DNA of 64,000 bases from an uncultured Gammaproteobacteria bacterium (GCA_964584665.1 CAZPAO010000013.1:488-64487); one strand, 5' to 3'; shown: positions 6,303 to 64,000, numbered from the stretch's first letter. Numbers and translations: made by a program. The notes: generated by a model from the sequence alone, not told the origin.

Positions 6303-6326
6303 CGGGTCAGGACAAGGGGACGATGC

Positions 6327-6557
6327 ATGAAGAGTCGGCGCGCCGCACGGCGCCATAAAACGCTCTTGGCCGTGGTGCTGTTGACCCTGGCCGCCACCAT
6401 CTGGCCCGGCTATCTCCTGGGCGCGCGCGTCGAACCCTATGTGCTCGGTCTTCCGTTCAGCCTGGCCTGGCTCTCGGGCTGCATACTGGTTTTGTTCGCG
6501 GCCTTGTTGCTGACCTTCCGCGCCGACATGCGTGCCGGCGGGAGGGAAGGGCAGTGA
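6327..6557 (+). CDS. Small two-TM protein (DUF3311-like) accompanying a solute symporter
   Basis: Two hydrophobic segments with PYVLGLPFSLAW; overlaps the symporter start. Confidence 0.65.
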   Translation: MKSRRAARRHKTLLAVVLLTLAATIWPGYLLGARVEPYVLGLPFSLAWLSGCILVLFAALLLTFRADMRAGGREGQ

Positions 6558-8020: not shown

Positions 8021-8023
8021 GGC

Positions 8024-11365: not shown

Positions 11366-11506
11366 CTTGGGGCAGGTTACCTCAGTCGGAAGGCGCGGTG
11401 CGGACCGCCGCCCGACTCCCAGGCGCGGGTGGGGTCTGATCGCATCGAGAGTGTAAATAATGCTTAAAGAGACAGGGCTAAGTCAATGAAAATCCAGAAG
11501 ATAGCC

Positions 11507-12259: not shown

Positions 12260-12753
12260 GCGGCGACGAAGGTGAGGGTAGCGTCCACGACGCCGGGTGC
12301 CGCGCCCCGCTGCGCGTTCATCTCACGCACCGAGATGCCGTACTGGCGGCGCAAGCTGCCGAGCCAGCGGATCATGCTGTCGAAGCCCACCGCCTGCAGC
12401 TGCAGACGCACGGACCCGTCGCTGTTGGTCTGGGCCTGCTTCACCGATGCGGCGAAGCCGGCATCGCCGGCGCTGCGGCTCACCACCGCCAACAACGATT
12501 GGTTGGCGGGGATGCTGGAGGGTTGCTGCCCGCGCAGGGCCTGCAGCTGTGCCGCCGCGGGACCCATCCAGGCGATCAGGGCCTGGCGCGACTGGATGTC
12601 GTCCGCGAGGCGCTTCTTGCTGGCGAAGTAGGGATGCAGCACGGCGAGGTAGACGAACATGCCCAGCACCACCACGGCGCCGGCGGCGAGCACGCGCTGT
12701 TCGCGCTGCTGCAACGAGAGATACCAGGTCTTGAGTTCATCGTACTGCTTCAT
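12256..12753 (-). CDS. gspM: Type II secretion system protein M
   Basis: WYLSLQQREQRVL, single TM, LQAVGFDSMIRWL. Confidence 0.88.
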   Translation of the reverse strand: MKQYDELKTWYLSLQQREQRVLAAGAVVVLGMFVYLAVLHPYFASKKRLADDIQSRQALIAWMGPAAAQLQALRGQQPSSIPANQSLLAVVSRSAGDAGFAASVKQAQTNSDGSVRLQLQAVGFDSMIRWLGSLRRQYGISVREMNAQRGAAPGVVDATLTFVAA

Positions 12754-13976
12754 GAGCCGCCGCCCGAGAGCACGATGCGTCCCGTCACCTGGGCGCCGGA
12801 CGCGTTGACGGAGTCGAGATCCGCTCGCACGCTGCCTTGGGCGAGGGTGCCCTTGAGTGCATCCAGCGCGCCGATGTCGCCGGCCTGGAGTTGGACCTGC
12901 AGGCTGCCGCCCTGGTAGTTGATCCCAGTAACCTGGATGCTGGGATTTGACCCGAGGCCGCTGCCGAGTGCGTCCAGGAGCGCCAGCAGGGAACCGGCGG
13001 AATTGCCGCCCTGGAGTTCAGCGAGCTTGGCCTGCATCTCCTGCTGTTCGCTGCCGGGCACCAGGCGGCTGCCCGGCATGGCCTGGTTGAAGAGCTGGGT
13101 CACCTGGGCATCCAGGGTGTTCGCTTGCCGGCGCAGTTTCACGTAGGACGTGATCTGTTCCGCGAGTCCGAGCAGGAGGCAGAGGGCGAGCAGGACCACG
13201 GCGATGCGCCAGGTACGCCAATGTTCCTGCACGGGCGTCTGCGTCTTGAAGTCGCCCTGCAGCAGATCGAGCCCACGCTGGGCGCCGAGACCTGCCGCCA
13301 GTGCCGGCAATGCGCCATCCGCCACCGGGTGCTTGATGCGTTCCAGCGGCACGTCGCCCAGCGATGCGTCGAAAGCGTCCACGTCCGCGGCGGCGCCATG
13401 GATCGAGAGGCGGGTGAAGGCGCCGGCACTCTCTGTGATGCGTCGCTTGAGCAGTTCCGCTCCGAATGCCGTATCGGTGGCGAAGCCGCCGCCATCCGGC
13501 ATGCGCACCAGCACGGCACCGCCGTCCAGCGCCACCGCCACGCTACCGGGCTCCGGCGCGAGAGCGCAGACATCCGGCACCAGGCGCGCGGGCCGCAGGC
13601 CTGCATCGGCGAGTTCATCCAGGCAGGCGCGCAGGCGCGCCTTGCCCATCACAGCGACCAGTTGGCCCGCATCGGTGCGTGCACCCAAAGCGAAGTGCAG
13701 CGTCTCCACGTCTTCCGCCAACTTGTCTTCAAGGATGTAGGGGACCGCCTGCAGCACCTTCTGCGGGTTGCGGCTGGGCACGTCCACGTGCATCAGCGTC
13801 ACCTGTTCGGCGGGCACGAGCACAGTGAGGCGCCGGCCCTTGGCCTGCAGCTCTGCGGCTTCCGCCAAGGTGCCCTGCTGCACATGGCCGATGCGATTGC
13901 CGAGGGTATCCACCAGCAGCCAGCGGGCAGGCCCGGCGGCACGCGGCAGGTGGAGGTAGAGGGATTCAGCCATCAC
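12750..13976 (-). CDS. gspL: Type II secretion system protein L
   Basis: AVPYILEDKLAEDVETLHFA, LDLLQGDF, TM, periplasmic C-terminal domain. Confidence 0.9.
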   Translation of the reverse strand: MMAESLYLHLPRAAGPARWLLVDTLGNRIGHVQQGTLAEAAELQAKGRRLTVLVPAEQVTLMHVDVPSRNPQKVLQAVPYILEDKLAEDVETLHFALGARTDAGQLVAVMGKARLRACLDELADAGLRPARLVPDVCALAPEPGSVAVALDGGAVLVRMPDGGGFATDTAFGAELLKRRITESAGAFTRLSIHGAAADVDAFDASLGDVPLERIKHPVADGALPALAAGLGAQRGLDLLQGDFKTQTPVQEHWRTWRIAVVLLALCLLLGLAEQITSYVKLRRQANTLDAQVTQLFNQAMPGSRLVPGSEQQEMQAKLAELQGGNSAGSLLALLDALGSGLGSNPSIQVTGINYQGGSLQVQLQAGDIGALDALKGTLAQGSVRADLDSVNASGAQVTGRIVLSGGGS

Positions 13977-14905
13977 AGGGTCCCGAAAGTACGACGCACG
14001 GCGATCACACCATTGCCGGCGCCACGATACAGCAGACTGTACAGCGTGACATGGGTGCTGCCAATCTCCGCGTCCACGGTCAGCAGGAAGTACTGGCTGT
14101 CATAACCCATGTTGGCGGGTTTGATGAGGGCTGCAGTGAAGGCATCCGGCGGGCTTTTGAATACCTGGCTGCCGCGCGCGCCGATGACCTGCGAAGCGAG
14201 ATCAGCGCTGATGTGCGAGTCCAGGGATTCGAGCACCGGGCCCGACGCGGTATTTATGTTGACCTTGGCCACGCCGGCCTGGGCCGGCAGCGCGCAGACA
14301 TAAGGGGATATCTGAGCATAGACCGCCGGGGTGATGCCCTTCACCAGCAGGAGTTCGCTGACGCTGCTAATGGGGCCTTCGGCGGTGATATAGGCTGGCT
14401 GCAGGCGGGAGTAATAGTCGTCCTTGGCGCCGCCAGGTGACGCCACGCTGCTGCGGCTCATCCAGTCCGCCACGGTCTGCGCCAGGGTCGGGTCCTGGTT
14501 CAGGGCGGTGAGCAGGTTCTGGAACTGCTGCAGGGACGTCGGCTGGATCTGACCCTGGGCATTCACGATGTTGTTGAGGTTGAAGCGACCTTGCAGGTCC
14601 TCGATCTTGCCCCGGATCTGGCCACCCTCCACCGGCAACGGCGGCAGCTGTTGGGCCCAGTCCTGGCTCAAGGCGGTGGCGCCCGGATTCTGGCGTCCGG
14701 AACGGGCGAGGATCTGCTCCGCCCAGGCTTCCGCGCCGAGCGCGTATTCCATGGCTTGGTCGCCCTGCACCAGGGTAGAGGTGCGTCGCACGTCCAGCCC
14801 CGACTGCCAGATCATGGCCGCGGCGAGTCCGGCCGCGATGGCGAGCACCACCAGCGCGGTGATGAGCGCGACGCCGTGCTGGCGATCAGGGGCAGACCGA
14901 GCCAC
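13973..14905 (-). CDS. gspK: Type II secretion minor pseudopilin K
   Basis: QHG/VALITAL prepilin-like N-terminus, IEDLQGRFNLNN, ELLLVKGI, VNINTA. Confidence 0.92.
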   Translation of the reverse strand: MARSAPDRQHGVALITALVVLAIAAGLAAAMIWQSGLDVRRTSTLVQGDQAMEYALGAEAWAEQILARSGRQNPGATALSQDWAQQLPPLPVEGGQIRGKIEDLQGRFNLNNIVNAQGQIQPTSLQQFQNLLTALNQDPTLAQTVADWMSRSSVASPGGAKDDYYSRLQPAYITAEGPISSVSELLLVKGITPAVYAQISPYVCALPAQAGVAKVNINTASGPVLESLDSHISADLASQVIGARGSQVFKSPPDAFTAALIKPANMGYDSQYFLLTVDAEIGSTHVTLYSLLYRGAGNGVIAVRRTFGTL

Positions 14906-15524
14906 AGCTCGCTACCTCCACGATGCGGGTCACGTCGCTGAGATCCTTGAGCGTGACGGTGATGCTGACGGCGACGGGCAGGCTGTCCGGCACAGCCGCA
15001 TGGGTCGAGGCGGTGGGCGCGAGGGTCGGCGGCCACACGTCCTGGAAGGTCTTGGACACCGCATCCATATACTGGATTTTGATGGAAGTCACGTCCTCCA
15101 GCAGCGGCTGCTTGGCCGGCGTCACCTGCGCCATGCCATCCAGCTCGGGCCACCAGGAACGCATGAGCTTGCCGTCCTCGAGGCTGTAGGCGACGCGTTC
15201 CTGGGTGCTGCGCGTGCTGCCGAGCGGGTTGGCCCAGCCGCCGCGGGTGAACTGGATGGGCGGCACGTTCTGTGGGCCGGCGAGCAAGGCCGGCATGGTG
15301 CCTCCCAGGCCGTCGCGCACCGGGCGCGGTTCCAGCTGCGCGAAGTCGCGGGCCATGATGTCCATGGCGAGCTGAACCTGGCGCAGGCGCTTCATGGCAT
15401 CGCCGTTCTGCTGGCGCGCCCTGGTGACGCCCGCGAGGCCGCCGTAGGCGATGGCCATGATGAGCGCGGTGATGCTGAGCGCCACCAGCAGTTCCACCAG
15501 CGTGAAGCCGCGCGTGTGTCTCAT
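14886..15524 (-). CDS. gspJ: Type II secretion minor pseudopilin J
   Basis: MRHTRG/FTLVELL type IV prepilin cleavage site; start set at ATG 15524 (ATGA overlap with gspI). Confidence 0.9.
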   Translation of the reverse strand: MRHTRGFTLVELLVALSITALIMAIAYGGLAGVTRARQQNGDAMKRLRQVQLAMDIMARDFAQLEPRPVRDGLGGTMPALLAGPQNVPPIQFTRGGWANPLGSTRSTQERVAYSLEDGKLMRSWWPELDGMAQVTPAKQPLLEDVTSIKIQYMDAVSKTFQDVWPPTLAPTASTHAAVPDSLPVAVSITVTLKDLSDVTRIVEVASCGSVCP

Positions 15525-15955
15525 GGGTTGGTCCCGGGCTGCCCCGTGCCGCTGCCGAGCCCGGACTGGCTCGCCTGCTGGTTGGGCGGCAGGCCCATGA
15601 AGCCGGTGACGGTGGCGATGGTGGCATCGGGCGTGTCGCCCAGGCTCACGTCGATGTCGATGCGCAGGAGCCCGGGGTCCGCGGTCTTGGTCATTGTGGC
15701 TTTCCAGTGCCACTTCTCGCCGCCCATGTCCGCGTCGCCGTTCAGGGAGTCGTCGCTGGGCCAGCTCTGGGCGGCCCGCAACATGGTGAGTTCGTTCAAG
15801 CCCACCCAGTTCGCGTAGGTGGTGTCGCGCAGGTGCGCGCCGTCATGGGCGGTGTGACCGGCGGTGCCGATCACCGCCGTGAGGCCGAGCGCGAGCACGG
15901 CGAGCGCGATCAGCACTTCCAGCAAAGTGAAACCTCGCGCGTGCCGCATACTCAT
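15521..15955 (-). CDS. gspI: Type II secretion minor pseudopilin I
   Basis: RG/FTLLEVLIAL, LRDTTYANWVGLN. Confidence 0.9.
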   Translation of the reverse strand: MSMRHARGFTLLEVLIALAVLALGLTAVIGTAGHTAHDGAHLRDTTYANWVGLNELTMLRAAQSWPSDDSLNGDADMGGEKWHWKATMTKTADPGLLRIDIDVSLGDTPDATIATVTGFMGLPPNQQASQSGLGSGTGQPGTNP

Positions 15956-16551
15956 GGCGGCGACTTCGCGGCCTGGGCGTCTTCGGGCGTGATCACCGTG
16001 ATGCCGTCAGCGAGCGTGCCTTTCACGGTATAGATCGAGCCGGAAGCGCTGCCGGTCACCTGGATCTCGAAAGGCGGCAGTTCGCCGCTGGAGAGCAGGA
16101 GCACCTGCGGCAAGTCCTTGTTCTCGGGCATGCCACTCTCGCTGTCGGCGCTCGCGGGAGCGGATGCAGCGCCGGGGTCCTCGACGGTCGCGGGCGGCGG
16201 CGCCAGCGTCGCCGGCGCACCCTCCAGCTGCAGCGACAGGGTCACCTCATCGCCGAGGTCGCGCCGGTAGAAAAGGTTGTCACCCTGGACCGGCGACCAC
16301 TTGCGGCCATCGTAGGTAAAGAAGGTGTAGCCGTGGGCTTCGATGCGCAAGCCGTACTCCTGGCCCTGCATGATCGCCTGCTCGGCAGCGAGGCCGGTGA
16401 GGTTCGCCAACTGCTCGGCAGCGCGCTTGGCCGGGGGATCGCGGCCGATGACGTTGAGGGAGATGATGGCGAAGCCCGCTACGATGGCGATGATGACCAT
16501 CACCACCAGGAGCTCTATGAGCGTGAAGCCTCGATCGCGTTGCGGGCTCAC
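15952..16551 (-). CDS. gspH: Type II secretion minor pseudopilin H
   Basis: RG/FTLIELLVV, EQAIMQGQEYGL, LLLSSGELPPF. Confidence 0.9.
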   Translation of the reverse strand: MSPQRDRGFTLIELLVVMVIIAIVAGFAIISLNVIGRDPPAKRAAEQLANLTGLAAEQAIMQGQEYGLRIEAHGYTFFTYDGRKWSPVQGDNLFYRRDLGDEVTLSLQLEGAPATLAPPPATVEDPGAASAPASADSESGMPENKDLPQVLLLSSGELPPFEIQVTGSASGSIYTVKGTLADGITVITPEDAQAAKSPP

Positions 16552-16566
16552 GTGCGTGCCCGCGGG

Positions 16567-17028
16567 TCAGTGCCCGCCGTTGCCGCTGGAGCCGTTGTCG
16601 TTCATGTTCCAGTTGCCGATGTCGGCGTTCACGCCGTCACCGCCGGGCTGGCCGTCGGCGCCGTTGGACCAGATGTCCACCGCCAGGCCGTGGGCGCTGG
16701 GATTGACGTACTGGTAGGGATGGCCCCAGGGGTCCGTGGGCAGCTGATCGAGATACTGCTTCCAGTGGGGCGGCGCGGGGTTGGCCGAGGGCTTCTGCAC
16801 CAGCGCTTCCAGGCCCTGGTCGGTGCTGGGATAGACGTAATTGTCCAGACGGTAGACCTCGAGGGTCGACTGGATGGCCTGGATGTCGGACTTCACCTTG
16901 ACGATGCGGGCCTCGTCGGGCTTGTCCATGATCTTGGGGACGATGACCGCCGCCAGGATACCGAGGATGACCACCACCACCATCACTTCGATGAGGGTGA
17001 AACCGGATTGCGTCTTGCGGGTCTGCAT
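16567..17028 (-). CDS. gspG: Type II secretion major pseudopilin G
   Basis: SG/FTLIEVMVVVVILGILAAVIVP, YRLDNYVYPSTDQGLEAL, DPWGHPYQY, DIGNW. Confidence 0.95.
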   Translation of the reverse strand: MQTRKTQSGFTLIEVMVVVVILGILAAVIVPKIMDKPDEARIVKVKSDIQAIQSTLEVYRLDNYVYPSTDQGLEALVQKPSANPAPPHWKQYLDQLPTDPWGHPYQYVNPSAHGLAVDIWSNGADGQPGGDGVNADIGNWNMNDNGSSGNGGH

Positions 17029-17098
17029 GGTGTTTTGGCTGATAAAATCAGGGTTGGAGCGCGTTCCTGCGCAGGCCCCAATCATACACTAAGCCCCC

Positions 17099-51912: not shown

Positions 51913-52185
51913 GGCGCCTCGTCACCGTCTTGAGTTTTGGGCCGCGTATTCTTCCACAGCCTCGCCTCCAGCTCACCGCCCTGATGGGGAGCTTAGTGCC
52001 GGTAGGCTCCTGGGTAGCCCGCCGCTCAGGCACTCCAAGGCATACAACAGGCTTTTCTGGCCGCCTCGACCAAGACCCCCCCCTTGTAGGCATTTGATGC
52101 TATCGGGCGGGGCAGGTAATGCTCAGGGCGCCTATGGCTCTAGGCCTAGCGAGGGCCAGGCCTCGCCAAACCCGGCACATCTTTG

Positions 52186-52213
52186 AAATAACATAATATA
52201 CATTATGCGCATT
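52186..52213 (-). other. dif: dif site (XerC/XerD chromosome-dimer resolution site)
   Basis: Minus strand AATGCGCATAA-TGTATA-TTATGTTATTT vs E. coli GGTGCGCATAA-TGTATA-TTATGTTAAAT (24/28); intergenic; KOPS polarity flips here. Confidence 0.9.
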
Positions 52214-52346
52214 ATTGAGATGGCTCCAGAGGGCAGACCGGCTTGTTTTGAGGCATCAAGGCCTTACAGCCACATCAACCTGCTCCACAGGCACAGCTCG
52301 TGAGAGCTAATGGCCATACATCAAGTTGAATTAGATAAAATATATT

Positions 52347-52359
52347 TATCAACTAGTTA
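52347..52359 (+). promoter_or_regulatory. IHF consensus site
   Basis: TATCAACTAGTTA matches WATCAANNNNTTR exactly, in an AT-rich context. Confidence 0.55.
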
Positions 52360-52671
52360 TAAGACTATTCTCAAATTTACCTCCGCCTGGTTCACCGGTC
52401 CCAAACCACAGCTAGCCCCTTTGCTATGGCGCTTCGGAGTTCCGCTTTGAGACCGGGTAATCACAGGCCATGTCTGGATTACCCCGGTCGGATCATGTGT
52501 GCGTTTAGGCCGATATAACCCTCAGCCTAGAATCCTGGGCTTAATGCCAGCATCCGGGTGACTCCAGGAGGCCTGGATTTAAGGTGATTCTGCAGGGCAC
52601 ATCGAATTCCGAATCAGCGGTGTCGTAAGCATGTGTTCCACACATCTAATACAGTATCTATAAATATTATA

Positions 52672-52684
52672 TAACTTGTTGATA
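52672..52684 (-). promoter_or_regulatory. IHF consensus site, inverted relative to the first
   Basis: Minus strand TATCAACAAGTTA matches WATCAANNNNTTR exactly. Confidence 0.55.
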
Positions 52685-52937
52685 TATATACTTTTAACTA
52701 ATCTACAAATTCACCGCTCTATAAACCCTCCCAGCGCTCATTTCATGCCAAGAAGAGACGAAGACAGCACCTGCCAGCGGTTCGCTCCACGGGCGATACA
52801 GTGCGTCTGGGTATGCCTGCGTGCATCACTTGGGAGCTACGGACGCGTGCAAGTGCTTGAAATGCCATCGCACTGTCCCCGTCCAACCTGAGCCTCTACA
52901 ATAGGCGCCCGCATCTGCGGCCGGTCGTCAGGCGCCC

Positions 52938-53312
52938 ATGTCAGAAGAAAAACGCACCTTCGACCGGATCGACACCGAACACTCGATCCGCATCCTCTGC
53001 GATGACGGCAGCAGCTTCCCGGGCATCGCCGCCAATATCTCCCTGACCGGCCTCCAGATCCTCTGTGACCGGCCCACCATGGAGCGCATAACCCCCCATG
53101 GCCTGGAGACCAAGGCGGCCAACGATGTGCCCATCCGGGTACGGGTCTCCCTGCCGGATATGCCCGAGAACCAGTCCAAACTGGGCCTGTTCGGCCGGGT
53201 GGTCTCGGTCCGGTCCGGCGGCCAGGATGAATACCGCATAGGCGTGCAGTTCACGGATTTCGAGCCAGGCAGCTATAACGCTTTGGAACACTATCTAGAC
53301 ACACATCTCTAG
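52938..53312 (+). CDS. Stand-alone PilZ-domain protein, likely c-di-GMP binding
   Basis: RTFDR (RxxxR) and NISLTG (D/NxSxxG), GVQF. Confidence 0.85.
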   Translation: MSEEKRTFDRIDTEHSIRILCDDGSSFPGIAANISLTGLQILCDRPTMERITPHGLETKAANDVPIRVRVSLPDMPENQSKLGLFGRVVSVRSGGQDEYRIGVQFTDFEPGSYNALEHYLDTHL

Positions 53313-53341
53313 CAAGACCGCTTGGGATTTGGGCCCCCAGC

Positions 53342-54112
53342 CTATTTCCCTGCATTACCGGTCTGAAGCTGCCCGCATTGACTGCCATAGGGCGTAAGCC
53401 CGGTATTGTTCTGATTGGGAGTGTTTCCAAACAGGCCCGCGGCCCGCTGCCTAAGGGCTTCGGCTTCGCTGTGCTGTCCACTCAATTGGAGTGCATCTGC
53501 GTAAGCCGTGAGGAATTCCGCATATTGTGCCGGTGAGTTTTTTTCAACGCCGGACTTGTCCATGAGCGTCTTGGCATGCGTGAATTCCGCCAGGGAATCT
53601 TGCAATTTTCCCGCGGCTTTGTGCATCAGTGCCAGTTCGAAGATATCAGTGGCGGTTGGCCCTTGCTGCTCATTATCGAGCTCGTAAGCCACTTGCAGAT
53701 TATGTTCCGCCAGATCGTACTGACAGATGATTCCCGAAGTACGCCCGTATTCGTAATATAAGTTGACCATTGTCTGGGGAGAGGCATGCGCCAGTTCCCC
53801 GTTTCGTACGGCCTTCGCAAAGGCCTGCTGTGCAAGGTTCCACTCAAGTGTGAGTTCCAAGTAAGAACCGAAATGATAGTAAAGCAGGCTGAGCCCCGCG
53901 GCTGGCATGTTCCCCTTCTCGGCCTTATCGACCGAGATCTCCATTTCATTGCGACCCGTCTGCCAGGCGCCGTTATTCATCGCCTCACGCGCCGCGTCGT
54001 AGTGATTTTGGGATTCTTTTATCAATGCCACGTCTATATCGGCCCGAACGCTCGGGGTGACGGCAACTAGAAGAAACGCGCTAATGGCACACAAACAAGG
54101 GGCACGCATCAT
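53342..54112 (-). CDS. Hypothetical secreted TPR-like protein, low GC
   Basis: Signal peptide, helical repeats (YYHFGSYLE, YYEYGRTSG); sampled lines 45-52% GC. Confidence 0.65.
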   Translation of the reverse strand: MMRAPCLCAISAFLLVAVTPSVRADIDVALIKESQNHYDAAREAMNNGAWQTGRNEMEISVDKAEKGNMPAAGLSLLYYHFGSYLELTLEWNLAQQAFAKAVRNGELAHASPQTMVNLYYEYGRTSGIICQYDLAEHNLQVAYELDNEQQGPTATDIFELALMHKAAGKLQDSLAEFTHAKTLMDKSGVEKNSPAQYAEFLTAYADALQLSGQHSEAEALRQRAAGLFGNTPNQNNTGLTPYGSQCGQLQTGNAGK

Positions 54113-56023: not shown

Positions 56024-57193
56024 TCATTTCAGCACGGTATCGATGACAATGGCGAGCGGTTTGCTGCTCGCCTTCATCCAATCCCCCTGCCCCAGGAGAT
56101 CGCCTGGCTGGGCGATTGCGGTACCGCTCTTAGACACGCGCGCGCTCACCACCACGGCATCAAAGGCGGAGATCACCCTCCCCGGTACCATAGCATCCTG
56201 ATCACTCAAGCTGATATCCAATGGTAGTTGCTCGAGCTTGAATCGGCGCACCGCCAGCGGCGGCCCCCCCTCCCCGCTTTTCGGCTGCACATAGACGAAC
56301 ACCGTCGTATCCGGTGACAAGCCTACGGCTAAGGTCTTGGATAGGCTCACGTGCAGCTTGATCAGAGCGGTCTCGCTCGATACTGTCCCGCCGGCCTCGG
56401 TTATGGCCTTGGTGATCATGGACCGGTATTGTTCGGGTGGATCCTGGGCCAGTATCGCCTGCCAATGCCTGATCGCGAGAGGCTTATCCCCCTGCTGCAA
56501 GGCGCCCAAACCACCGTACCAGAGTGCCTGCACGTTGGCGGGATCCTCCTGCAAGGCTTTATTGAACAGCGGCAGCGCTCGATCAAGGAAAGCATCGGGA
56601 TCGGTCAGGCTCAATGCCTCGGCATAACTCGCGAGGGCGTCTGGATCATCGTCTCCGGACAAGCTGCGTGCATGTTCGAAAGCCTTGAGGGCATCAGGGT
56701 AACGATCCATGACCATGTATGAGTGGCCGAGCATCTTCCATCCTTCAAGATCCTTCTGCCCTGTCGGTGTCTGTAGACGCGCTGCAAGCTGCGCCACCAT
56801 ATCCACCACCGCCTGGGTGGAGGCTGCCTGCACGCCTTCAGCGCCCACGCGCCAACTCCCATAGAACCAATACAAGGACCCCGCAACTACTAACAACAAC
56901 AGCGATGTGACACGGGCGGTGAGACGTTGCGGCATCGCCTTGCGTGTGGCCTGCTTCGCATCACCGGTGGAAGCCAAGTCAGTCTCCAGGTCGCGGACGG
57001 CGGCTGCATGATCGTCAGTGGAAAGACGCCCTGCCTCCAGATCCAGTTGTAGCTCGGCGAGACGGCGTGCGTGCACTTCACGATTTGCGGCCGCGGCACC
57101 CGTGTGCACCGGCACCCGCGCGCGCCACAGGGGCACCGCCAGGACCGACCCTGCCAGCAGGCACATGGCGAGTGCGATGATGAAGAAGGTCAT
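56024..57193 (-). CDS. ccmI: Cytochrome c biogenesis protein CcmI/CycH
   Basis: NREVHARRLAEL, LYWFYG, TPR region, GPPLAV, VSARVSKSG; start set at ATG 57193. Confidence 0.88.
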   Translation of the reverse strand: MTFFIIALAMCLLAGSVLAVPLWRARVPVHTGAAAANREVHARRLAELQLDLEAGRLSTDDHAAAVRDLETDLASTGDAKQATRKAMPQRLTARVTSLLLLVVAGSLYWFYGSWRVGAEGVQAASTQAVVDMVAQLAARLQTPTGQKDLEGWKMLGHSYMVMDRYPDALKAFEHARSLSGDDDPDALASYAEALSLTDPDAFLDRALPLFNKALQEDPANVQALWYGGLGALQQGDKPLAIRHWQAILAQDPPEQYRSMITKAITEAGGTVSSETALIKLHVSLSKTLAVGLSPDTTVFVYVQPKSGEGGPPLAVRRFKLEQLPLDISLSDQDAMVPGRVISAFDAVVVSARVSKSGTAIAQPGDLLGQGDWMKASSKPLAIVIDTVLK

Positions 57194-57600
57194 GGGGCGG
57201 CTGCCTCGCTTTGCCGCGCGCGGCGACGCACCACCAGCATCACCACTGAGAGCGCTATCGCCAGGAGGATGAAGGGTCCGATCCAAAGCAGAGCCGTGTT
57301 GCGCTGCACCGGCGGCTTGTAGAGCACGAAGTCTCCATAGCGCTCGACCATGTAGTCCTTGATCTCGGCGTCGGTCTTGCCCGCCGCCACCATCTCATGG
57401 ATCTGGCGGCGGAAGTCAGCGGCGAGATCCGCATTGGAGTCCGCGACGGTCTCGTCCTGGCAGACGAGACAACGCAACTCGTGGGTGAGGTGCTCGTAAC
57501 GAGCCTGGGTCGTGGCATCAGGGAATGGCGGCTGGCTGTCTATAGCTGCGGCGGAAGCCGCCACCAGCGCCAGACCCAACCCAAGCAAAAGCTGTCTCAC
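57190..57600 (-). CDS. ccmH: Cytochrome c biogenesis protein CcmH
   Basis: LRCLVCQDE, SNADLA, YMVERYGDFVLYKPP. Confidence 0.93.
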   Translation of the reverse strand: MRQLLLGLGLALVAASAAAIDSQPPFPDATTQARYEHLTHELRCLVCQDETVADSNADLAADFRRQIHEMVAAGKTDAEIKDYMVERYGDFVLYKPPVQRNTALLWIGPFILLAIALSVVMLVVRRRARQSEAAAP

Positions 57601-58148
57601 TGGGGCTCCGCCTGGAGTCTCTGCACCAGCGGTACCAGTTGGGTATCGACGATGTCTTGGGTCAAGGGGCCGATGTATTTCTCACGCACGATGCCGCGCT
57701 TGTCTATGACGAAGGTCTCGGGTGCGCCATACACGCCCCAATCGATGGCCACGTCCCCACTGGCGTCGAAGGCCACCGCATCGTAGGGGTTGCCGTCCTT
57801 CTGCAGCATGGCGAGGGCATCGTTGCGGACATCGTGGTAGTCGAGGCCGTAGATTGCCAACAGTTTGCGCTTGGACAGGGCCACCAGCACCGGATGCTCG
57901 TCGTGACAGCTGCCGCACCAGGCACCCCAGACGTTCAGCACCGATACCTTGCCCTGGAACACATCCTGGTCAAGCTTCGTGCCGGCATCCTGCAACTGCG
58001 GCAGCGAGAACTTCGGTGCGCCCTTACCGAGGAGAGGCGAAGCCACCTTGGTGGGGTCCAGGAACAGGCCGCGCGCGAAGAGGCCGATGAGGGTCAACAG
58101 CACCAGCGCAGGGATGATGAAAGGCACGTATTGCCTGAACTTGTTCAT
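57597..58148 (-). CDS. ccmG: Thiol:disulfide oxidoreductase CcmG/DsbE
   Basis: LNVWGAWCGSCHDEHP, WGVYGAPETF. Confidence 0.93.
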   Translation of the reverse strand: MNKFRQYVPFIIPALVLLTLIGLFARGLFLDPTKVASPLLGKGAPKFSLPQLQDAGTKLDQDVFQGKVSVLNVWGAWCGSCHDEHPVLVALSKRKLLAIYGLDYHDVRNDALAMLQKDGNPYDAVAFDASGDVAIDWGVYGAPETFVIDKRGIVREKYIGPLTQDIVDTQLVPLVQRLQAEPQ

Positions 58149-60106
58149 GCGCGCTCCACTGCCGCGGGCACAGCTTCAGTCACAGCGGAACGGCGGTAAC
58201 GCCTGTCACTGGCCGCAAGCAGTCCGCCCAGCATCATGAGCAGACCACCGAGCCAGATGAAGCGCACCATCGGCTTGTACTGCACCCGCACGCTCCAGGC
58301 CCCCTGGTCCAGTGGGTTGCCGAGCGCGAGGTATAGATCACGGAACAGCCCCGGGTCGATGGCGGCTTCGGTGGTCTCGTTGCCGATGCTGGGGAATTCG
58401 CGCTTCTCAGGACGCATCACCGCGATCGGTCGGCCGCCCCAGCTGACTTCGAATACACCCTGGCGGGCTTCGTAATTCGGGCCCTGCTCCGCATGCACGC
58501 CCTGGAAAGTGAAGTCGTAGCCGGCGACGCTCACGCTCTGGCCGGCTTTCATCACCACGTCCTGCTCGACGCCAAGCGTGCTGGTGACGCAGATGCCCAG
58601 CACCAGCGTGGCGGCACCGAGATGGGCCACACTCATGCCGAGAGTCGCACGCGAGAGGCTCGCATGCCGCCCCTGCAGCCGCTGACGCAGGCGGGTGATG
58701 GGTTCGATGAAGGCGGAACCGGCGATCCAGGCGGCCAGCAAGGCACCTGCGGCCACAATGACCGCGCCCTCCCCATGGGCGAACACCAATGACACCACGG
58801 CCGCCGCGAGCGCCGCGATGCCGGCGATGCGCAGGGTGCGCGCGGTGTCACGGGCATCCCCCTGCTTCCAGCGCACGTAGGGGCCGATGCCGACGAGGAT
58901 CAGGAACGGCAGCATCACCGGGATGAAGACCGCATTGAAGTACGGCGGCCCCACCGAAAGCTGCCCCAGGCCGAAGGCATCCATCAGCAGCGGATAGAGT
59001 GTACCGAGCAGCACCGAGGCCGCCGCCACCACCAGGAAGATGTTATTGAGCAGGAGCAGCGTCTCGCGGGAGAACGGCTGGAAGCCGCCGCCCCGAGCCA
59101 GCGTCGGCGCGCGCCAGGCATAGAGAGTGAGCGCCGCACCCACGAACACGCCGATCATGGCCAGGATGAAGATGCCGCGCTTGGGATCGCTGGCGAAGGA
59201 ATGCACGGAGATGAGCACGCCGGAACGGACCAGGAATGTGCCGAGCAGGCTCAAGGAGAACGCCGCGATGGCAAGCAGAGCGGTCCAGTTCTTGAAGGCG
59301 CCGCGCTTCTCCGTCACCGCCAGGGAATGCACCAGTGCCGTGCCCACGAGCCAAGGCATGAAGGAGGCGTTCTCCACCGGGTCCCAGAACCACCAGCCGC
59401 CCCAACCCAATTCATAGTAGGACCACCAGCTGCCGAGGGTGATGCCGAACGTGAGGAACAACCACGCGGTGAGGGTCCAGGGGCGCGACCAGCGCGCCCA
59501 CACCGCGTCCATGCGTCCGCCCAGCAAGGCTGCCACGGCGAAGGCGAAGGCCACCGAGAACCCCACGTAGCCCGTGTAGAGCATGGGCGGGTGGATGGCC
59601 ATGGCCGGATCCTGCAGGATGGGATTGAGATCCCTGCCCTGCTCCGCCGCCGGCAAGAGGCGCGTGAACGGATCCGATGTGGTGAGCATGAACAGGCAGA
59701 AGCCGAAAGTGATGAGACCCATCACACCCAGCACGCGGCCGGCGAATTCCTGGGGCAGGTGCCGGCTGAAATACGTGACCGCCAGGGTCCAGAGCGCCAG
59801 CACCGAGACCCACAGCAGCAGCGAGCCCTCATGGGCGCCCCATACCGCCGTGATCTTGTAGGGCCAGGGCAGCGAGACGTTGGAATTCTCGGCCACATAC
59901 CGCACTGAGAAATCACTGACTAAGAAGCTATAGACGAGAGCGGCGAACGCACCCAACACGAACAAGGTCTGGAGGGTCGCCGCCGGGCGCACCGCCGAGA
60001 GCCATACCCCGTCATGGCGCTGGGCGCCAGCGATGCCGAACCATGCCTGGGCGGCGGCGAGGCAGAGCGCGAGGATGAGAGCGAGATGGCCGAGTTCGGG
60101 GATCAT
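58145..60106 (-). CDS. ccmF: Heme lyase CcmF
   Basis: MIPELGH, WGAHEGS, IHPPMLY, WSYYELGWGGWWFWDPVENASFMPW, SVHSF. Confidence 0.96.
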   Translation of the reverse strand: MIPELGHLALILALCLAAAQAWFGIAGAQRHDGVWLSAVRPAATLQTLFVLGAFAALVYSFLVSDFSVRYVAENSNVSLPWPYKITAVWGAHEGSLLLWVSVLALWTLAVTYFSRHLPQEFAGRVLGVMGLITFGFCLFMLTTSDPFTRLLPAAEQGRDLNPILQDPAMAIHPPMLYTGYVGFSVAFAFAVAALLGGRMDAVWARWSRPWTLTAWLFLTFGITLGSWWSYYELGWGGWWFWDPVENASFMPWLVGTALVHSLAVTEKRGAFKNWTALLAIAAFSLSLLGTFLVRSGVLISVHSFASDPKRGIFILAMIGVFVGAALTLYAWRAPTLARGGGFQPFSRETLLLLNNIFLVVAAASVLLGTLYPLLMDAFGLGQLSVGPPYFNAVFIPVMLPFLILVGIGPYVRWKQGDARDTARTLRIAGIAALAAAVVSLVFAHGEGAVIVAAGALLAAWIAGSAFIEPITRLRQRLQGRHASLSRATLGMSVAHLGAATLVLGICVTSTLGVEQDVVMKAGQSVSVAGYDFTFQGVHAEQGPNYEARQGVFEVSWGGRPIAVMRPEKREFPSIGNETTEAAIDPGLFRDLYLALGNPLDQGAWSVRVQYKPMVRFIWLGGLLMMLGGLLAASDRRYRRSAVTEAVPAAVERA

Positions 60107-60330
60107 GGTAGTGGCGTCAAGGTGAGGGTGGTGTGCGCTTCGGCAGCCGCGACGGCACTCGCAGCAACGGCTCCTATGAGCATTTTACTCTAGCTTTAGG
60201 CAGTCCGCGCTTAATTGGTTCCCTCACGCCAGCTCGGGGCAAGAGTGATTCATTTACGACAGCGAGCTTGGTTCTTCTCAGCAGCTGCGCGCATTGTGAC
60301 GGAGCCCAGGCATTTGCCCCTTAACGGGCG

Positions 60331-61083
60331 TCACGGGCCACTGTGCACATCCGCCGGTTCGGCCAGATCCTCCCGGTTGCGGTAGTTTGCCGCTTCCTTC
60401 TCGGAACTCGTGGTCAGGACAATTTCACCCGTAGCCTGGGAGTCCCGCTGCGAGTAGATGTAGCTGATATCCCAGTGGAGCCGACGCTCCTTGTCGCCGT
60501 TGCCGATTCCGTAGACCCACACGGTCACTATGCCGTTCGGGGTGGCCTTGAGTTCGTCCAGCGTCGGGCCGTCCAAGGTCACGTCGGAGTTGTGCCCGGG
60601 CAGGATATCCGGGATGGACAAAGGCGTCGAGCTGACCGTGTGGCCATTCACCTCGAAAGCGTAAGCCGCGTTTGACGTGCGCATGACATCGTCGGAACCA
60701 TTGCGCAGACTGACATGGATTCGTGCCGTCGCCGGCTCCAGACGGTAGAAGGGGCTCCGGCGGACCTTGTATCTCTTGGGTGGGGATATCAGCAGGTAAG
60801 TGCCGTCCGACTCGGACTGGACGTCGTAGCGATAATAGAGTACTGGACGCAAATCAGACAGCGATACCGTTGCGGTGAGGTCCGCCATCTGCTGCGTCGG
60901 GGACCCTACGGTGAAATCCACTTCGTCGGCGATGACTTCTACGGGATATACCGACGGCTCTTGCATGCCAGTATCAGCGCCGATGGGCGGTGGCTCATGA
61001 TCGGTGGCGCATGCGGTTAGCATTAGACAGAATGTGCCCAAGCTGAAAGCAAGCCTACACCAATGGGTGATGCTCCGTTTCAT
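60331..61083 (-). CDS. Hypothetical lipoprotein
   Basis: MKRSITHW...LMLTAC lipobox; beta-rich; no recognised motif. Confidence 0.65.
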   Translation of the reverse strand: MKRSITHWCRLAFSLGTFCLMLTACATDHEPPPIGADTGMQEPSVYPVEVIADEVDFTVGSPTQQMADLTATVSLSDLRPVLYYRYDVQSESDGTYLLISPPKRYKVRRSPFYRLEPATARIHVSLRNGSDDVMRTSNAAYAFEVNGHTVSSTPLSIPDILPGHNSDVTLDGPTLDELKATPNGIVTVWVYGIGNGDKERRLHWDISYIYSQRDSQATGEIVLTTSSEKEAANYRNREDLAEPADVHSGP

Positions 61084-61163
61084 TTTTGGTCCCGCGCACG
61101 ATTGATAAGAAGAAACCAACCTCATTCTTCCTCACGAGCCATATGCAGAGCCGCACTCCATCG

Positions 61164-61535
61164 CTACCCTTTCTGCAGTTCCCCCTTGAGGTATTGCACG
61201 AGATCCTTTAGCTGCTGGTCGGTCAGGTTGGGATGCGCGGGCATCGGTTGCGAGAGATCCTTGAAATGCTTGTCCGAACCACTGCGCCCGAACTTGATGG
61301 TGTGGACGATGTCCTGTTCACTGGCGCTCGATACAAACTGGCTGCCTTTCAACGGCGGCGCCAAACCTGGGATGCCTTCTCCCTTTGTACCATGACAGCC
61401 GGTGCAGTCCTGGCTGTGGAATACCTTTGAACCGGCCGAATCATCAGCCGCATACACACTGTTGCTAAACAGCGCGCCTGAACCTAGCACCGCGATAGCA
61501 CAAAATACGGATTTGACCAGCTTGGAATTGTTCAT
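61164..61535 (-). CDS. Periplasmic monoheme class I cytochrome c
   Basis: Signal peptide ending VYA, CTGCH, distal QPMP, GGAG RBS. Confidence 0.92.
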   Translation of the reverse strand: MNNSKLVKSVFCAIAVLGSGALFSNSVYAADDSAGSKVFHSQDCTGCHGTKGEGIPGLAPPLKGSQFVSSASEQDIVHTIKFGRSGSDKHFKDLSQPMPAHPNLTDQQLKDLVQYLKGELQKG

Positions 61536-61611
61536 GGGTTTCTCTCCAAATCACTCCAGAAGAACCAGGAGCTTTGTGTTTGTCTCGGCCCTGATGCCGA
61601 TTCAGCATAAC

Positions 61612-61644
61612 AAAAAAAGAGGGCCGGAAAATTCTCCGGCCCTC
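61612..61644 (-). terminator. Intrinsic terminator downstream of the Cyc2-like gene
   Basis: GAGGGCCGGA/TCCGGCCCTC 10-bp stem followed by a 7-U tract on the minus strand. Confidence 0.85.
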
Positions 61645-61665
61645 CGTAGTTTCAGCAATTTTACC

Positions 61666-63102
61666 TTACATCGGGAAATCGAGACCTATCTGTACGGTGA
61701 CCCCGCTCGTCGAGGAGGGTCCGGTCAATGACAACGAATGTCCTTGCGATATCTGAGCGAAGACTGCGAAGTTCATAGCCGGATTATAGACCAGCGTCAG
61801 ACTCAGGGTATCCGGGTTGTCTATGTCATACGACACGCCGGTATGGTCAGTGAAATTATATTTCAGGTAGTGCGTGTAACCCGGCTGTATGCAATACGTA
61901 TGCATATAGCAGTACAGGAACCCGGCTCCAAAGATGTCCTCTTTGAAGGACGCGCCATCATAGTATTCGTCCTTGCCATAGGCAAATCCAGCTGCGAATG
62001 CCCAGCTGTCTCCTCCGCTTGCTCCAACGTCAGACCTCTGCCAGCGGAACACAGGAGCGATAGCGGTGTTGTTCTTCAGATCGGTGTTCATATAGGCACC
62101 CAAACCGGCGCCTCGCGTGGCCGTGATGCCGGGGATCGCATCACCGTACGTGTAATAAAGCGGGTTCTGGGTGGGACCTGACTGGAGGCTGTCCCGGGTG
62201 ACATACGGGATTTCGTCATCCCCGTATTGCGCCATGACTTTCACACCTATCGTGTTGTCGCTCGTGTTATCGAAGTAATAGGCCAGCGAACCCTCTTCCA
62301 TTTTCCGATCCCAGCCGTTGTTGTTGTCGCCGGTGCGCAGACCTAACTGCCAGTCCCAGCGGTCGTGCATCCAGCCGGTTATCCGGTAGCCGCCGGTGGT
62401 TGGATGCGCATTTCCACCGAGCGTGCCAAACGGACCGAGTGAGTTGGGCGCACCGATCGAGTTGGGGCCCCATCCATCCGATTCCTGGATACTCTGATTG
62501 GTGAAGCGGACGGAATAGACATCGCCGTTTGCCTGGACCGCATCTGGATTGATCGTATAGACCAAGTCGTATTCATCCCACGTGGGAAGTCCCGGCGCCC
62601 AAGCACTGCCACCGACACAGGATCCGCCAACACAATTGTTGGCACCGTAGTCGCCGACGATATAGAACTCATTCCAGAAGCCGATGTGATCCGTCAACGG
62701 CCCGACCACAAACCACGACATGCGCGTGGTCGGATTGCTGGCCAATTCAGTGCCGTTGGCCCCGAAGGTCTTATTGGCCAGAATGCTCTCAAACCGATAC
62801 GAGAGGTAATCGTCCCACGGCAGGCTGAGTACCTCGCCATCCTTGGCGCCCTGGCTTGGCTGGCCGGCGACCAGCTTGGTCTGGCGCTCAGGGATACGAT
62901 AACCCAACGAGCGGAACTTCATGCCCTGGATGGTGAAGTTCGGTGTCGGGTCATGGGTGAAATGGCATTGGTTGCAACTCATGCCGGTCTGCCTGGCGAA
63001 ACTCGGCATGGCGTTCGCCGTACCTGCAGTTAAGATACCCAGTGCCAGCGCACCTATCGCCTTGAGGCCCAGTCGGGCCATCCAACGTTTAATGCTATTC
63101 AT
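61666..63102 (-). CDS. Cyc2-like fused monoheme cytochrome c / outer-membrane beta-barrel
   Basis: Signal peptide ending ANA, then MPSFARQTGMSCNQCH...P.F...G..F...GY (Cyc2 N-terminal signature); about 430 aa of Gly/Tyr/Trp/Asn-rich amphipathic strands ending VQIGLDFPM; 478 aa. Confidence 0.82.
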   Translation of the reverse strand: MNSIKRWMARLGLKAIGALALGILTAGTANAMPSFARQTGMSCNQCHFTHDPTPNFTIQGMKFRSLGYRIPERQTKLVAGQPSQGAKDGEVLSLPWDDYLSYRFESILANKTFGANGTELASNPTTRMSWFVVGPLTDHIGFWNEFYIVGDYGANNCVGGSCVGGSAWAPGLPTWDEYDLVYTINPDAVQANGDVYSVRFTNQSIQESDGWGPNSIGAPNSLGPFGTLGGNAHPTTGGYRITGWMHDRWDWQLGLRTGDNNNGWDRKMEEGSLAYYFDNTSDNTIGVKVMAQYGDDEIPYVTRDSLQSGPTQNPLYYTYGDAIPGITATRGAGLGAYMNTDLKNNTAIAPVFRWQRSDVGASGGDSWAFAAGFAYGKDEYYDGASFKEDIFGAGFLYCYMHTYCIQPGYTHYLKYNFTDHTGVSYDIDNPDTLSLTLVYNPAMNFAVFAQISQGHSLSLTGPSSTSGVTVQIGLDFPM

Positions 63103-63177
63103 GGTTTTGTACCCTTATGCAAGTTTCTTAATGATGACCGGATGAATCGATGCCTGATGGCACGTGCCAACATCAGG

Positions 63178-63576
63178 TTACTGCCCTGCCGGAACATCTT
63201 TCGGGTCAGTTGCAGTCTGCAGCCCATTCTTCAGGTAGTCGACGATCGCAGCGACTTCACCATCGGACAGGAAATTGAATACGGGCATACCCGAGTAAGC
63301 GCGATAGTGTTTGAAGGGACCCTGCCTGCCTTCCTCGATCGTCTTGGCGATGAGGTCGGCTCCACCGCTCACGACGAAAGGGTCTCCTTTCAGCGGAGGA
63401 CCGAAAATGCCGATGCCTTGGCCCCAGTTCCCATGGCATGAAGAACAGTGCTCGTGGTATGCCTTGTCACCGTTCCAGAACTTGTTCGCATCGGTATCTG
63501 CATATGCCTGACCAGCCATCAAGGCGCCGCCCAGGATCAGAGCAGTAGCCGATATCAGTTTCGCAGTCGTCTTCAT
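63178..63576 (-). CDS. Periplasmic monoheme class I cytochrome c
   Basis: Start at ATG 63576 after GGAGG; signal peptide ending AYA, CSSCH, distal SGMP. Confidence 0.92.
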   Translation of the reverse strand: MKTTAKLISATALILGGALMAGQAYADTDANKFWNGDKAYHEHCSSCHGNWGQGIGIFGPPLKGDPFVVSGGADLIAKTIEEGRQGPFKHYRAYSGMPVFNFLSDGEVAAIVDYLKNGLQTATDPKDVPAGQ

Positions 63577-64000
63577 GTTGCTTGCCTCCGCAATACCCTT
63601 TGAAGTGGATAAAAAACCAAGGCACCCATAAAGCGAGCTGCCCGTTATCTTCAGCGGCTCACCACCGGCCTGACCGGCACACAGGATGTCGGTTCTCAGG
63701 CCGTCCCAAATCCAGCTAGAAACAAACGCCATGTCCTCATAGCGTGGTTTCTTGGCAACGGAAGTGTGGCCTTTGGCCCGGCTATTTACTTTTGGAATCT
63801 TGGCGGCTTTATTGCTGATTATTGCGACCCATGCTGATGGGTCAGGGCCAGCAAGGCTTACGGGAGAGCTATAAGTAAAATGTCGAAGGATGAACGTTTA
63901 CTGCATATCCAGCTTACATACTCATGTTGCCTTTTCGCATCACGGGCGGAATAGCTGTGGCGATGATGTATTTGTGGCTGGGAGTGTGTTATCTATTTCC

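Follow-up and report, generated by a model that had tools for sequence, protein, structure and literature searches.

Does a small group of genes lodged inside a cytochrome c maturation (ccm) locus of an uncultured Gammaproteobacteria bacterium encode a conduit that carries electrons across the outer membrane, and from what donor would those electrons come? The genes lie near one end of a 64,000-nt stretch of DNA (GCA_964584665.1 CAZPAO010000013.1:488-64487), which we refer to as the window and in whose positions all coordinates are given unless another contig is named. A first-pass annotation of this stretch had singled out a 478-aa exported protein, Cyc2-like and with porin-like sequence, encoded between two cytochromes c. 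On the (-) strand between 56.0 and 63.6 kb we find eight genes in the order cytA, porin-cytochrome, cytB, lipoprotein, ccmF, ccmG, ccmH and ccmI; the first four make up a cassette, and cassette and ccmFGHI are transcribed from the same strand. We conclude from sequence comparison that the 478-aa protein is probably homologous to Cyc2 as a whole and falls in a small separate clade, and we consider it fairly probable that this Cyc2-superfamily porin-cytochrome and CytA, probably joined by CytB, make up a short path for electrons through the outer membrane, with Fe2+ as the most likely donor.

The open reading frame (ORF) at 61666-63102 begins with a Sec-type leader, in line with the export that had been proposed: MNSIKRWMARLGLKAIGALALGILTAGTANA is followed by MPSFARQ..., and inspection of the translation reveals a basic n-region, a hydrophobic core and a cleavage site between A-N-A and M, which gives MPSFARQTGMSCNQCH as the mature N-terminus. 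The heme motif CNQCH falls exactly at the annotated position, 62962-62976. Cyc2 has been defined by a signal peptide, one CXXCH, the motif AXPXFAR[Q/K][T/Y] upstream of it, a consensus PXL at +4, no fewer than 365 aa and a porin domain (PMC8406198). The features used for screening, namely signal peptide, one CXXCH, AXPXFAR[Q/K][T/Y], at least 365 aa and a porin barrel, are all present in the 478-aa protein. The motif runs A31-M-P-S-F-A-R-Q-T39 and is separated by three residues from C43, the same spacing as in the Acidihalobacter protein P0168 and the Gallionellales protein P0210, and in the family (50 homologues) F35, R37, T39, C43, C46, H47, P54, F56 and T57 are invariant. The gene and its parts are as follows.

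61666-63102, (-) strand: fused porin-cytochrome, 478 aa, AMPSFARQTGMSCNQCH; based on the motif, the AlphaFold2 (AF2) barrel and Cyc2-type N-terminal homology.
63010-63102, (-) strand: Sec-type leader of the porin-cytochrome, residues 1-31 with the cleavage site behind A-N-A; based on inspection of the translation.
62986-63012, (-) strand: AMPSFARQT, the AXPXFAR[Q/K][T/Y] motif, residues 31-39; based on the translation and the definition in PMC8406198.
62962-62976, (-) strand: CNQCH heme c attachment site, residues 43-47; the sole CXXCH in the ORF.
62935-62943, (-) strand: P-N-F, residues 54-56, the clade's counterpart of the PXL heme-packing motif; based on family conservation and hhalign pairing with PEL.
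61669-62805, (-) strand: beta-barrel, about residues 100-478, 16-18 predicted strands; based on DSSP of the AF2 model and Foldseek.

That the ORF is not a chance one follows from the occurrence of the exact protein on six contigs (the places shown are ENA, JGI and two Logan runs) and from its 50 full-length homologues, all of which are named 'hypothetical protein'. The source samples are ERZ27245407, JGI 3300031595 and 3300036823, SRR8464962 and SRR9009751. Pfam and NCBIfam hold no family for it, and a sequence search of the PDB returned noise only. The AF2 model, built with 50 homologues, has a mean predicted local distance difference test score (pLDDT) of 77 and a predicted template-modelling score (pTM) of 0.77, and forms an all-beta barrel that starts near residue 100 and reaches the C-terminus, with 18 strand elements, including two short ones, assigned by DSSP to residues 100-477. 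The best folds found by Foldseek in the PDB are the 16-strand porins OmpT, Omp32, OmpF, OprP and OprO, with template-modelling (TM) scores of 0.44-0.49 to OmpT, OprP and OprO and the highest query-normalised score, 0.49, for OprO. The porin-like sequence noted earlier is thus predicted to form a barrel, with matches of OprO/OprP and OmpT type, and OprO and OprP are also the templates reported for Cyc2 modelling (PMC8406198).

Two details of the barrel C-terminus are worth recording. Proteins of the window's subclade end in ...LDFPM (61669-61683), and the terminal Met is unusual for the signal recognised by the barrel-assembly machinery; other subclades end in an aromatic residue (EYSF, DFLF). 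At one further locus, L015, a 528-aa porin-cytochrome ORF (7998-9584) does not have the usual aromatic C-terminal beta-signal, probably as a result of a 3' frameshift or of an assembly error in the metagenome-assembled genome (MAG).

How does the protein relate to the known members of Cyc2? Among 1.84 billion representatives, a profile of the porin-cytochrome family matched 48 sequences at E<=1e-30 (about 25 full length, the rest fragments), 257 at E<=1e-10 and 2229 at E<=1e-3, and a further homologue search with the family alignment retrieved no sequences beyond those already found. With 2229 representative clusters matching the profile, Cyc2 homologues are very widespread, and we see in the system a divergent form of something known rather than a new kind. 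The two peptides that are best conserved in the family, run against the GTDB species genomes, picked out about 23 loci encoding full-length relatives, together with several hundred loci that match residues ~1-141 only and carry the signature CH-xxx-PEL-T.FGR.FKL.GY; the best GTDB-representative match to the window protein is 65% identical. We call canonical the GTDB-scan sequences with the PEL signature, which are not labelled members of the published clusters 1-3. An hhalign comparison of the family with 53 canonical sequences gave a probability of 99.7% over residues 13-151, which span the heme peptide and the first two barrel strands, and BLASTP connects the window protein to Acidihalobacter prosperus WP_455379728.1 (2e-11, residues 4-154) and to a protein from a Gallionellales MAG (4e-12, residues 13-143). 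A barrel-only hidden Markov model (HMM) recovered the intermediates P0085 and P0202 at 1e-23 to 1e-25 and P0109 at 2e-12, and met the Gallionellales C-terminus colinearly with an E of 3.5e-5. There is also a chain of BLAST matches in which P0001, 97% identical to the window protein, is 26% identical to the canonical-type P0157 over 90% of the latter, and P0157 is 37.5% identical to the Acidihalobacter protein P0168. In clustering at E<=1e-30 and 80% coverage the canonical group (n=94, including the Gallionellales and Acidihalobacter proteins) and the family (n=83) stay unjoined. Relative to the published clusters, the clade may belong to the long-branched cluster 3 or stand apart from all three.

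With the Cyc2 proteins of Mariprofundus ferrooxydans PV-1 and A. ferrooxidans and with Leptospirillum Cyt572 (clusters 1-3; McAllister 2020; Keffer 2021) the window protein has much in common: a leader for Sec, one CXXCH close to where the mature protein starts, AXPXFAR[Q/K][T/Y] at identical spacing from the heme site, a length of 400-500 aa, an OprO/OprP-type barrel, a post-heme sequence that can be aligned through the first two strands (the T.GR.F...GY block), and frequent horizontal transfer, which has been documented for Cyc2 homologues before (PMC12442345). It differs in that the clade has an invariant P-N-F at +7 to +9, after an insertion of 3-4 residues, whereas PXL stands at +4; hhalign opens a gap here that pairs P-N-F with PEL, so that the clade's P-x-F sits 3-4 residues downstream of the canonical PXL position. 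Past residue ~150, moreover, the barrel of the clade is alignable through intermediates only. The earlier description of the protein as Cyc2-like is accordingly sound as far as the defining motif, the barrel and the N-terminal homology are concerned, and goes too far if it is taken to mean a typical Cyc2, given the separate clade, the displaced PXL and the lack of a link for residues 152-478 by profile comparison alone.

A partner for the porin-cytochrome is suggested by its neighbours. We counted as an upstream partner any CXXCH-bearing ORF of 70-330 aa on the same strand and at most 400 bp upstream. By this count an upstream monoheme cytochrome c accompanies the gene at 17 of 19 family loci, versus 3 of 55 canonical Cyc2-type loci. 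The latter now and then have a diheme c4-like gene downstream, and of the 19 family loci 7 have a downstream cytochrome c. The pair of a monoheme cytochrome c followed by the porin-cytochrome is the only one conserved across the whole clade. In the window both flanking cytochromes are of class I (PF00034/PF13442), in agreement with the annotation of exported monoheme cytochromes c on the two sides. CytA has the heme motif CSSCH and a Met ligand region YSGMPVF, and its nearest solved relatives are CcoP domains and c552; CytB has CTGCH and the Met region SQPMPAH, with CcoP and c552 again as its relatives in the PDB.

63577-64000, (-) strand: intergenic and promoter region upstream of cytA, reaching the window end; based on the sequence and the ribosome-binding site GGAGG.
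63178-63576, (-) strand: cytA, exported class I monoheme cytochrome c, 132-aa precursor; PF00034 1.9e-11, PF13442.
61618-61645, (-) strand: intrinsic-terminator-like hairpin; 12-bp stem with 8 G-C pairs, T-run.
61164-61535, (-) strand: cytB, exported class I monoheme cytochrome c, 123 aa; PF00034 9.1e-14.
60331-61083, (-) strand: lipoprotein, 250 aa, with a lipobox LMLTA/C; based on the sequence.

The mechanical ORF of cytA extends to 63732. Because the ATG at 63576 sits behind GGAGG and yields a normal signal peptide (MKTTAKLISATALILGGALMAGQAYA), we take 63576 as the true start, which is also where the first-pass annotation had placed the end of the block. The hairpin at 61618-61645 lies ~20 nt past the stop of the porin-cytochrome gene and divides cytA and porin-cytochrome from cytB and lipoprotein; its position right after that stop, together with the T-run, suggests that cytA and porin-cytochrome form the core transcription unit. 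In the region upstream of cytA the promoter scan, which did no better than on shuffled sequence, found a single weak sigma-70-like site (63845-63818), and an Rfam scan of the window found no RNA family. The lipoprotein has no match in Pfam or NCBIfam and only six close homologues, with copies of 34-38% identity at the same cassette position in loci L001 and L003, and is confined to the window's subclade. Its AF2 model, made from six sequences, has a pLDDT of 56 and a beta-sandwich core, and a Foldseek search with it returned generic beta-sandwich matches only and no informative fold.

The surroundings of the pair vary among relatives. In the largest subclade, a sister to that of the window, which is Usitatibacter/Casimicrobiaceae-like and has the signature CH-IGTDNVPNFT, the pair has as neighbours a RidA/L-PSP-like gene and a module of four genes (L011-L016, L090, L091) that encodes a fusion of a b561-type cytochrome b with a diheme cytochrome c (CytB-DHC), a DUF1924 protein and two soluble diheme cytochromes c (DHCs). 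The order in this cluster is RidA/L-PSP-like, cytochrome c, porin-cytochrome, an optional second cytochrome c, CytB-DHC, SHP homologue, DHC and DHC (L090 6681-12786; L091 4029-9823). The DUF1924 protein is the SHP homologue (PDB 1DW0, 2.4e-19) and is also homologous to cytochrome c'' (1E8E), and the DHC domains of the module match PDB 2FW5 and 3U99. SHP-sDHC-CytB(-mDHC) modules, which have been described as of unexplained function, adjoin mtoAB in Gallionellaceae, and an SHP-like gene lies within an iron-responsive cluster of Sideroxydans ES-1 (bioRxiv 10.64898/2026.01.22.701106). The sister cluster thus ties a protein of Cyc2 type to the enigmatic SHP complex. A different neighbourhood is seen at L089, which holds a 37% relative: here a 388-aa protein, an amicyanin-like cupredoxin and a cytochrome c are encoded upstream of the porin-cytochrome (5923-11746).

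Some of these loci have features of their own. In L011 the whole cluster of porin-cytochrome, CytB-DHC, SHP homologue and DHC occurs twice in inverted orientation, at 8001-12360 (+) and 17171-13412 (-), and the second porin-cytochrome copy aligns as two high-scoring segment pairs and may carry a frameshift. The vicinity of the L089 cluster also encodes a MopE-like copper-binding protein and a generic UbiA prenyltransferase; the latter was considered as a heme O synthase (CtaB), which would have been a parallel to the rus operon, and was rejected because it scores as a generic prenyltransferase only.

How could the parts work together? All four cassette proteins, judged by inspection of their leaders, would be exported by Sec. 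Ccm System I attaches heme c at CXXCH motifs, and the ccmABCDE and ccmFGHI genes that flank the cassette could provide one heme c for each CXXCH. The C-terminal ~380 residues of the porin-cytochrome are predicted to fold as a barrel of 16-18 strands, and the heme peptide of ~60 residues would plug its periplasmic mouth, the position proposed for Cyc2 (PMC8406198). Because the single polypeptide carries one heme, a soluble substrate would need to pass into the pore. We suggest that a small soluble reductant does so from the outside and reduces the heme, while the oxidised product remains outside; by analogy with the biochemically tested Cyc2 proteins this reductant is most likely Fe2+. The electron would then pass to CytA and, perhaps via CytB, on to a terminal oxidase or bc1 complex encoded elsewhere, with the lipoprotein as a putative accessory of the cassette. 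In this way the cassette would serve extracellular electron uptake. We regard Fe2+ oxidation as the most likely activity since the three superfamily members that have been tested biochemically all oxidise Fe2+ (PMC8406198), and since the gene contexts of the relatives resemble iron-oxidation loci.

These contexts invite comparison with other known systems. The rus operon of Acidithiobacillus, Acidiferrobacter and Acidihalobacter (cyc2-cyc1-cup-coxBACD-rus) resembles the cassette in that a Cyc2-type gene stands beside genes for periplasmic c-type cytochromes, and the resemblance extends to L089, where the type-1 copper protein is encoded directly upstream. The window cassette differs from it in having no cox, rusticyanin or heme A/O synthesis genes, in its cytochromes, which are monoheme and not c4, and in its layout, as it starts with a cytochrome c, comprises four genes only and lies inside a ccm operon. 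With MtoAB, PioAB and MtrCAB the cassette shares the concept of an electron conduit through the outer membrane, and the mtoAB genes of Gallionellaceae adjoin an SHP-sDHC-CytB(-mDHC) module like that of the sister subclade. Those systems consist of two or three proteins, with a porin of ~26 strands and a decaheme wire that can reach solids, whereas the window encodes a single polypeptide with one CXXCH, whose best folds are 16-strand porins, in place of a separate ~26-strand porin and decaheme cytochrome. The SHP/DHC/CytB complex itself is matched only at the sister-subclade loci, by the DUF1924 homologue of SHP and cytochrome c'', the DHC matches and the b561-type membrane subunit; it is absent from the window and from beside the window's subclade.

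Several observations weigh against an Fe2+-oxidising conduit of this kind. The consensus PXL at +4 is missing, H47 being followed by F-T-H-D-P-T-P-N-F, and the heme-bearing residues 25-54 have a pLDDT below 50, with the plug geometry not placed by the AF2 model. The direction of electron flow cannot be read from sequence. No member of the clade comes from a cultured or assayed organism, and many organisms with Cyc2 homologues are not known as iron oxidisers (PMC8406198). The 64-kb window contains no terminal oxidase, bc1, cupredoxin or carbon-fixation gene and has the look of an ordinary heterotroph; the first-pass annotation had already noted that rusticyanin and terminal oxidase are absent from it, and a cox gene or cupredoxin is likewise missing from the source contig up to 10 kb away. 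Finally, hhalign of residues 152-478 alone against the canonical sequences is not significant (probability 7%, P 0.005). This last result, and the fact that direct BLAST to the Acidihalobacter and Gallionellales proteins spans only ~27-32% of the window protein, could mean that the likeness to Cyc2 is limited to an N-terminal heme peptide shared with an unrelated porin, through convergence or domain shuffling, in which case a function deduced from Cyc2 would be unsafe. We consider this very improbable: the homology does not stop at the heme peptide and takes in the first strands of the barrel as far as residue ~151, the matches of the barrel-only HMM are colinear, with P0085, P0202 and P0109 bridging both groups, a BLAST link with 90% coverage exists, and the published Cyc2 clusters, from an analysis of 1,593 sequences, are themselves only 17-23% identical to each other (PMC8406198).

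The main rival accepts the hardware and assigns it another job. The same proteins could export electrons of the quinol pool to an outside acceptor, for example chelated Fe(III), Mn(IV) or humics, or could act on a non-iron substrate such as Mn2+, iodide, or sulfur or nitrogen species, the clade being functionally distinct from Fe(II)-oxidising Cyc2. What keeps this question of substrate and flow direction alive is the linkage to SHP/DHC/CytB in the sister subclade, where the pair always stands beside the cytochrome b-diheme c fusion, SHP and two soluble DHCs; the Rhodobacter/Shewanella complex is thought to move quinol electrons to SHP, which binds O2 or NO (bioRxiv 10.64898/2026.01.22.701106). 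The separation from canonical Cyc2 at E<=1e-30 (83 versus 94 sequences), the different heme-pocket motif and hosts that look like soil or sediment heterotrophs would fit as well. However, the window's own subclade has no CytB-DHC/SHP module nearby, the same SHP module also adjoins Fe(II)-oxidase genes, and the tested superfamily members all oxidise Fe2+ (PMC8406198), so we rate another job for these proteins as rather unlikely. Monoheme class I cytochromes of the CcoP/c552 type are high-potential and usually feed oxidases, which also argues against it. A further possibility is that the protein is a regulated porin whose heme serves Fe2+ detoxification or surface redox or iron sensing, with little energy conserved and the cytochromes merely dumping electrons. 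An AraC-family gene is divergently linked to the cassette in L084, L088 and L001 and another lies upstream in L090, the cassette is a small accessory island in heterotroph-like genomes, and many Cyc2 homologues occur in non-iron-oxidisers (PMC8406198). We find such a role improbable, as a dedicated periplasmic cytochrome partner is tightly conserved across the clade, and the cupredoxin or cytochrome b modules linked to the pair in relatives argue for a real electron-transfer chain. One may also ask whether CytA and the porin-cytochrome, instead of being one more Fe(II) oxidase, are a functionally separate mobile redox module of the outer membrane that connects to varying partners in the inner membrane; these partners may be the cupredoxin in L089 and the quinol-linked SHP-DHC-CytB complex in Usitatibacter-like bacteria. 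We think that this is doubtful. If it were true, soil and sediment heterotrophs would have a trans-envelope electron path to or from a non-canonical substrate, and a possible route to the long-unknown physiological role of SHP would open. On balance we favor the conduit from porin-cytochrome to CytA, with Fe2+ as its most likely donor.

How did the genes of this putative conduit come to lie in a ccm locus? The window is contained in a 209-kb source contig, L084, in which the cassette and ccm region spans 5463-17079, with window positions 56024-64000 as its right-hand part. Along L084, ccmABCDE is followed by an AraC-family gene, which is read from the other strand, then by cytA, porin-cytochrome, cytB and lipoprotein, and finally by ccmFGHI. 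A block of ~4.9 kb, consisting of the AraC gene and the four-gene cassette, thus separates ccmE from ccmF in a System I locus that is standard in other respects. The araC gene (L084 8140-9063, (-)) is divergent from cytA and starts ~40 bp past the window end, window position 64000 corresponding to about L084 9103. The ccm genes within the window are listed here.

58145-60106, (-) strand: ccmF, System I heme lyase, host gene flanking the insertion; TIGR00353 1.4e-223, GC content at third codon positions (GC3) 0.85.
57597-58148, (-) strand: ccmG/dsbE; TIGR00385 1.9e-47.
57190-57600, (-) strand: ccmH; PF03918 2.4e-48.
56024-57193, (-) strand: ccmI, 389 aa as called on the source contig; TIGR03142, PF23914 and PF23892, with the mechanical ORF reaching 57286.

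The same cassette lies elsewhere in relatives. An 85%-identical relative has the same arrangement as L084. In a 65% relative an intact ccmEFGHI is followed downstream by the AraC gene together with the four genes, and a Usitatibacter MAG (66%) carries the four genes between yajQ and a gene for a glutamine amidotransferase, where neither ccm nor AraC genes are close by. The AraC proteins of L084 and L001 are 40% identical, and the gene may encode a regulator of the cassette. Thus the succession cyt-cyc2-cyt-lipoprotein-ccmFGHI, which the first-pass annotation did not recognise from known operons, is not an operon design of its own and results from the insertion of cassette and AraC gene between ccmE and ccmF. 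Within the family, ccm genes lie at most 8 kb away at five loci, in at least three arrangements (L084/L088, L001/L004, L016/L091), and at none of the canonical loci, a linkage that far exceeds chance for a single-copy locus. The composition of the block differs from that of its surroundings. The four cassette genes of the window have a GC content of 0.546-0.594 and a GC3 of 0.63-0.73, against 0.62-0.66 and 0.77-0.85 for ccmF, ccmG and ccmH and a window mean GC of 0.644; the low GC that had been claimed (47-53% versus 65-73%) is thus real, and the size of the difference was overstated. Across three genomes GC3 is 0.63-0.77 in most cassette genes, whereas the flanks have 0.77-0.85 (window ccmFGH) or 0.93-0.99 (L003, Usitatibacter MAG). 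As the codon composition is alike in three genomes and the flanks differ, the four genes appear to move as a unit, and there is good evidence that the cassette has been transferred horizontally as such. The probable lateral acquisition proposed earlier is well supported, since the block is compositionally foreign in three genomes and its insertion sites differ. Around the insertion in L084, repeat searches gave short matches at chance level only, and the gene calls include no integrase or tRNA.

On the downstream side of the insertion, ccmFGHI starts 225 bp downstream of the lipoprotein gene, with no predicted coding-strand terminator between them, and the heme lyase may now be expressed in step with the cassette.

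What would such a conduit mean for our view of iron oxidation? Cyc2 is the main marker for inferring microbial iron oxidation from metagenomes, and the window's clade passes the screen for motif and length. The clade is deeply divergent, borne on a cassette, and found in uncultured, heterotroph-looking soil and sediment Gammaproteobacteria (in the GTDB sense) and Gemmatimonadales. If its members oxidise Fe(II), the capacity for iron oxidation in soil is broader and more mobile than views based on isolates would have it; if they do not, surveys that count such genes overestimate this capacity. In addition, the pairing with one small cytochrome offers a defined two-protein system for the hand-over of electrons from a monoheme porin-cytochrome to the periplasm, and with its place between ccmE and ccmF the acquired cassette gives an example of cytochrome genes that have landed within their own maturation machinery.

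As to the hosts, family members are found in MAGs of Burkholderiales, Usitatibacter, Gemmatimonadales, Woeseiaceae, Steroidobacteraceae, Marinobacter and Thermodesulfobacteriota. Woeseiaceae Cyc2 homologues, which may or may not belong to the window's clade, have been detected in sulfide-chimney metaproteomes (PMC6850669). The window's species is missing from the GTDB representatives, and FabF relatives with at least 90% identity belong to MAGs labelled 'Gammaproteobacteria bacterium'. Outside the cassette the window contains no other c-type cytochrome and no CytB-DHC/SHP module; it encodes functions common on chromosomes, namely GGDEF/EAL signalling, type II secretion, fabD/fabF, pabB, holB, fadB, peptidases and a resistance-nodulation-division (RND) pump. 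A second patch of low GC (0.52-0.57) lies at 52000-54112 and comprises a PilZ-domain gene at 52938-53312 (PF07238 for the matching L084/L085 gene) and, at 53342-54112, a gene for an exported 256-aa protein with a GC3 of 0.60 and no significant Pfam match, both of which are kept beside an M49 peptidase gene on the source contig.

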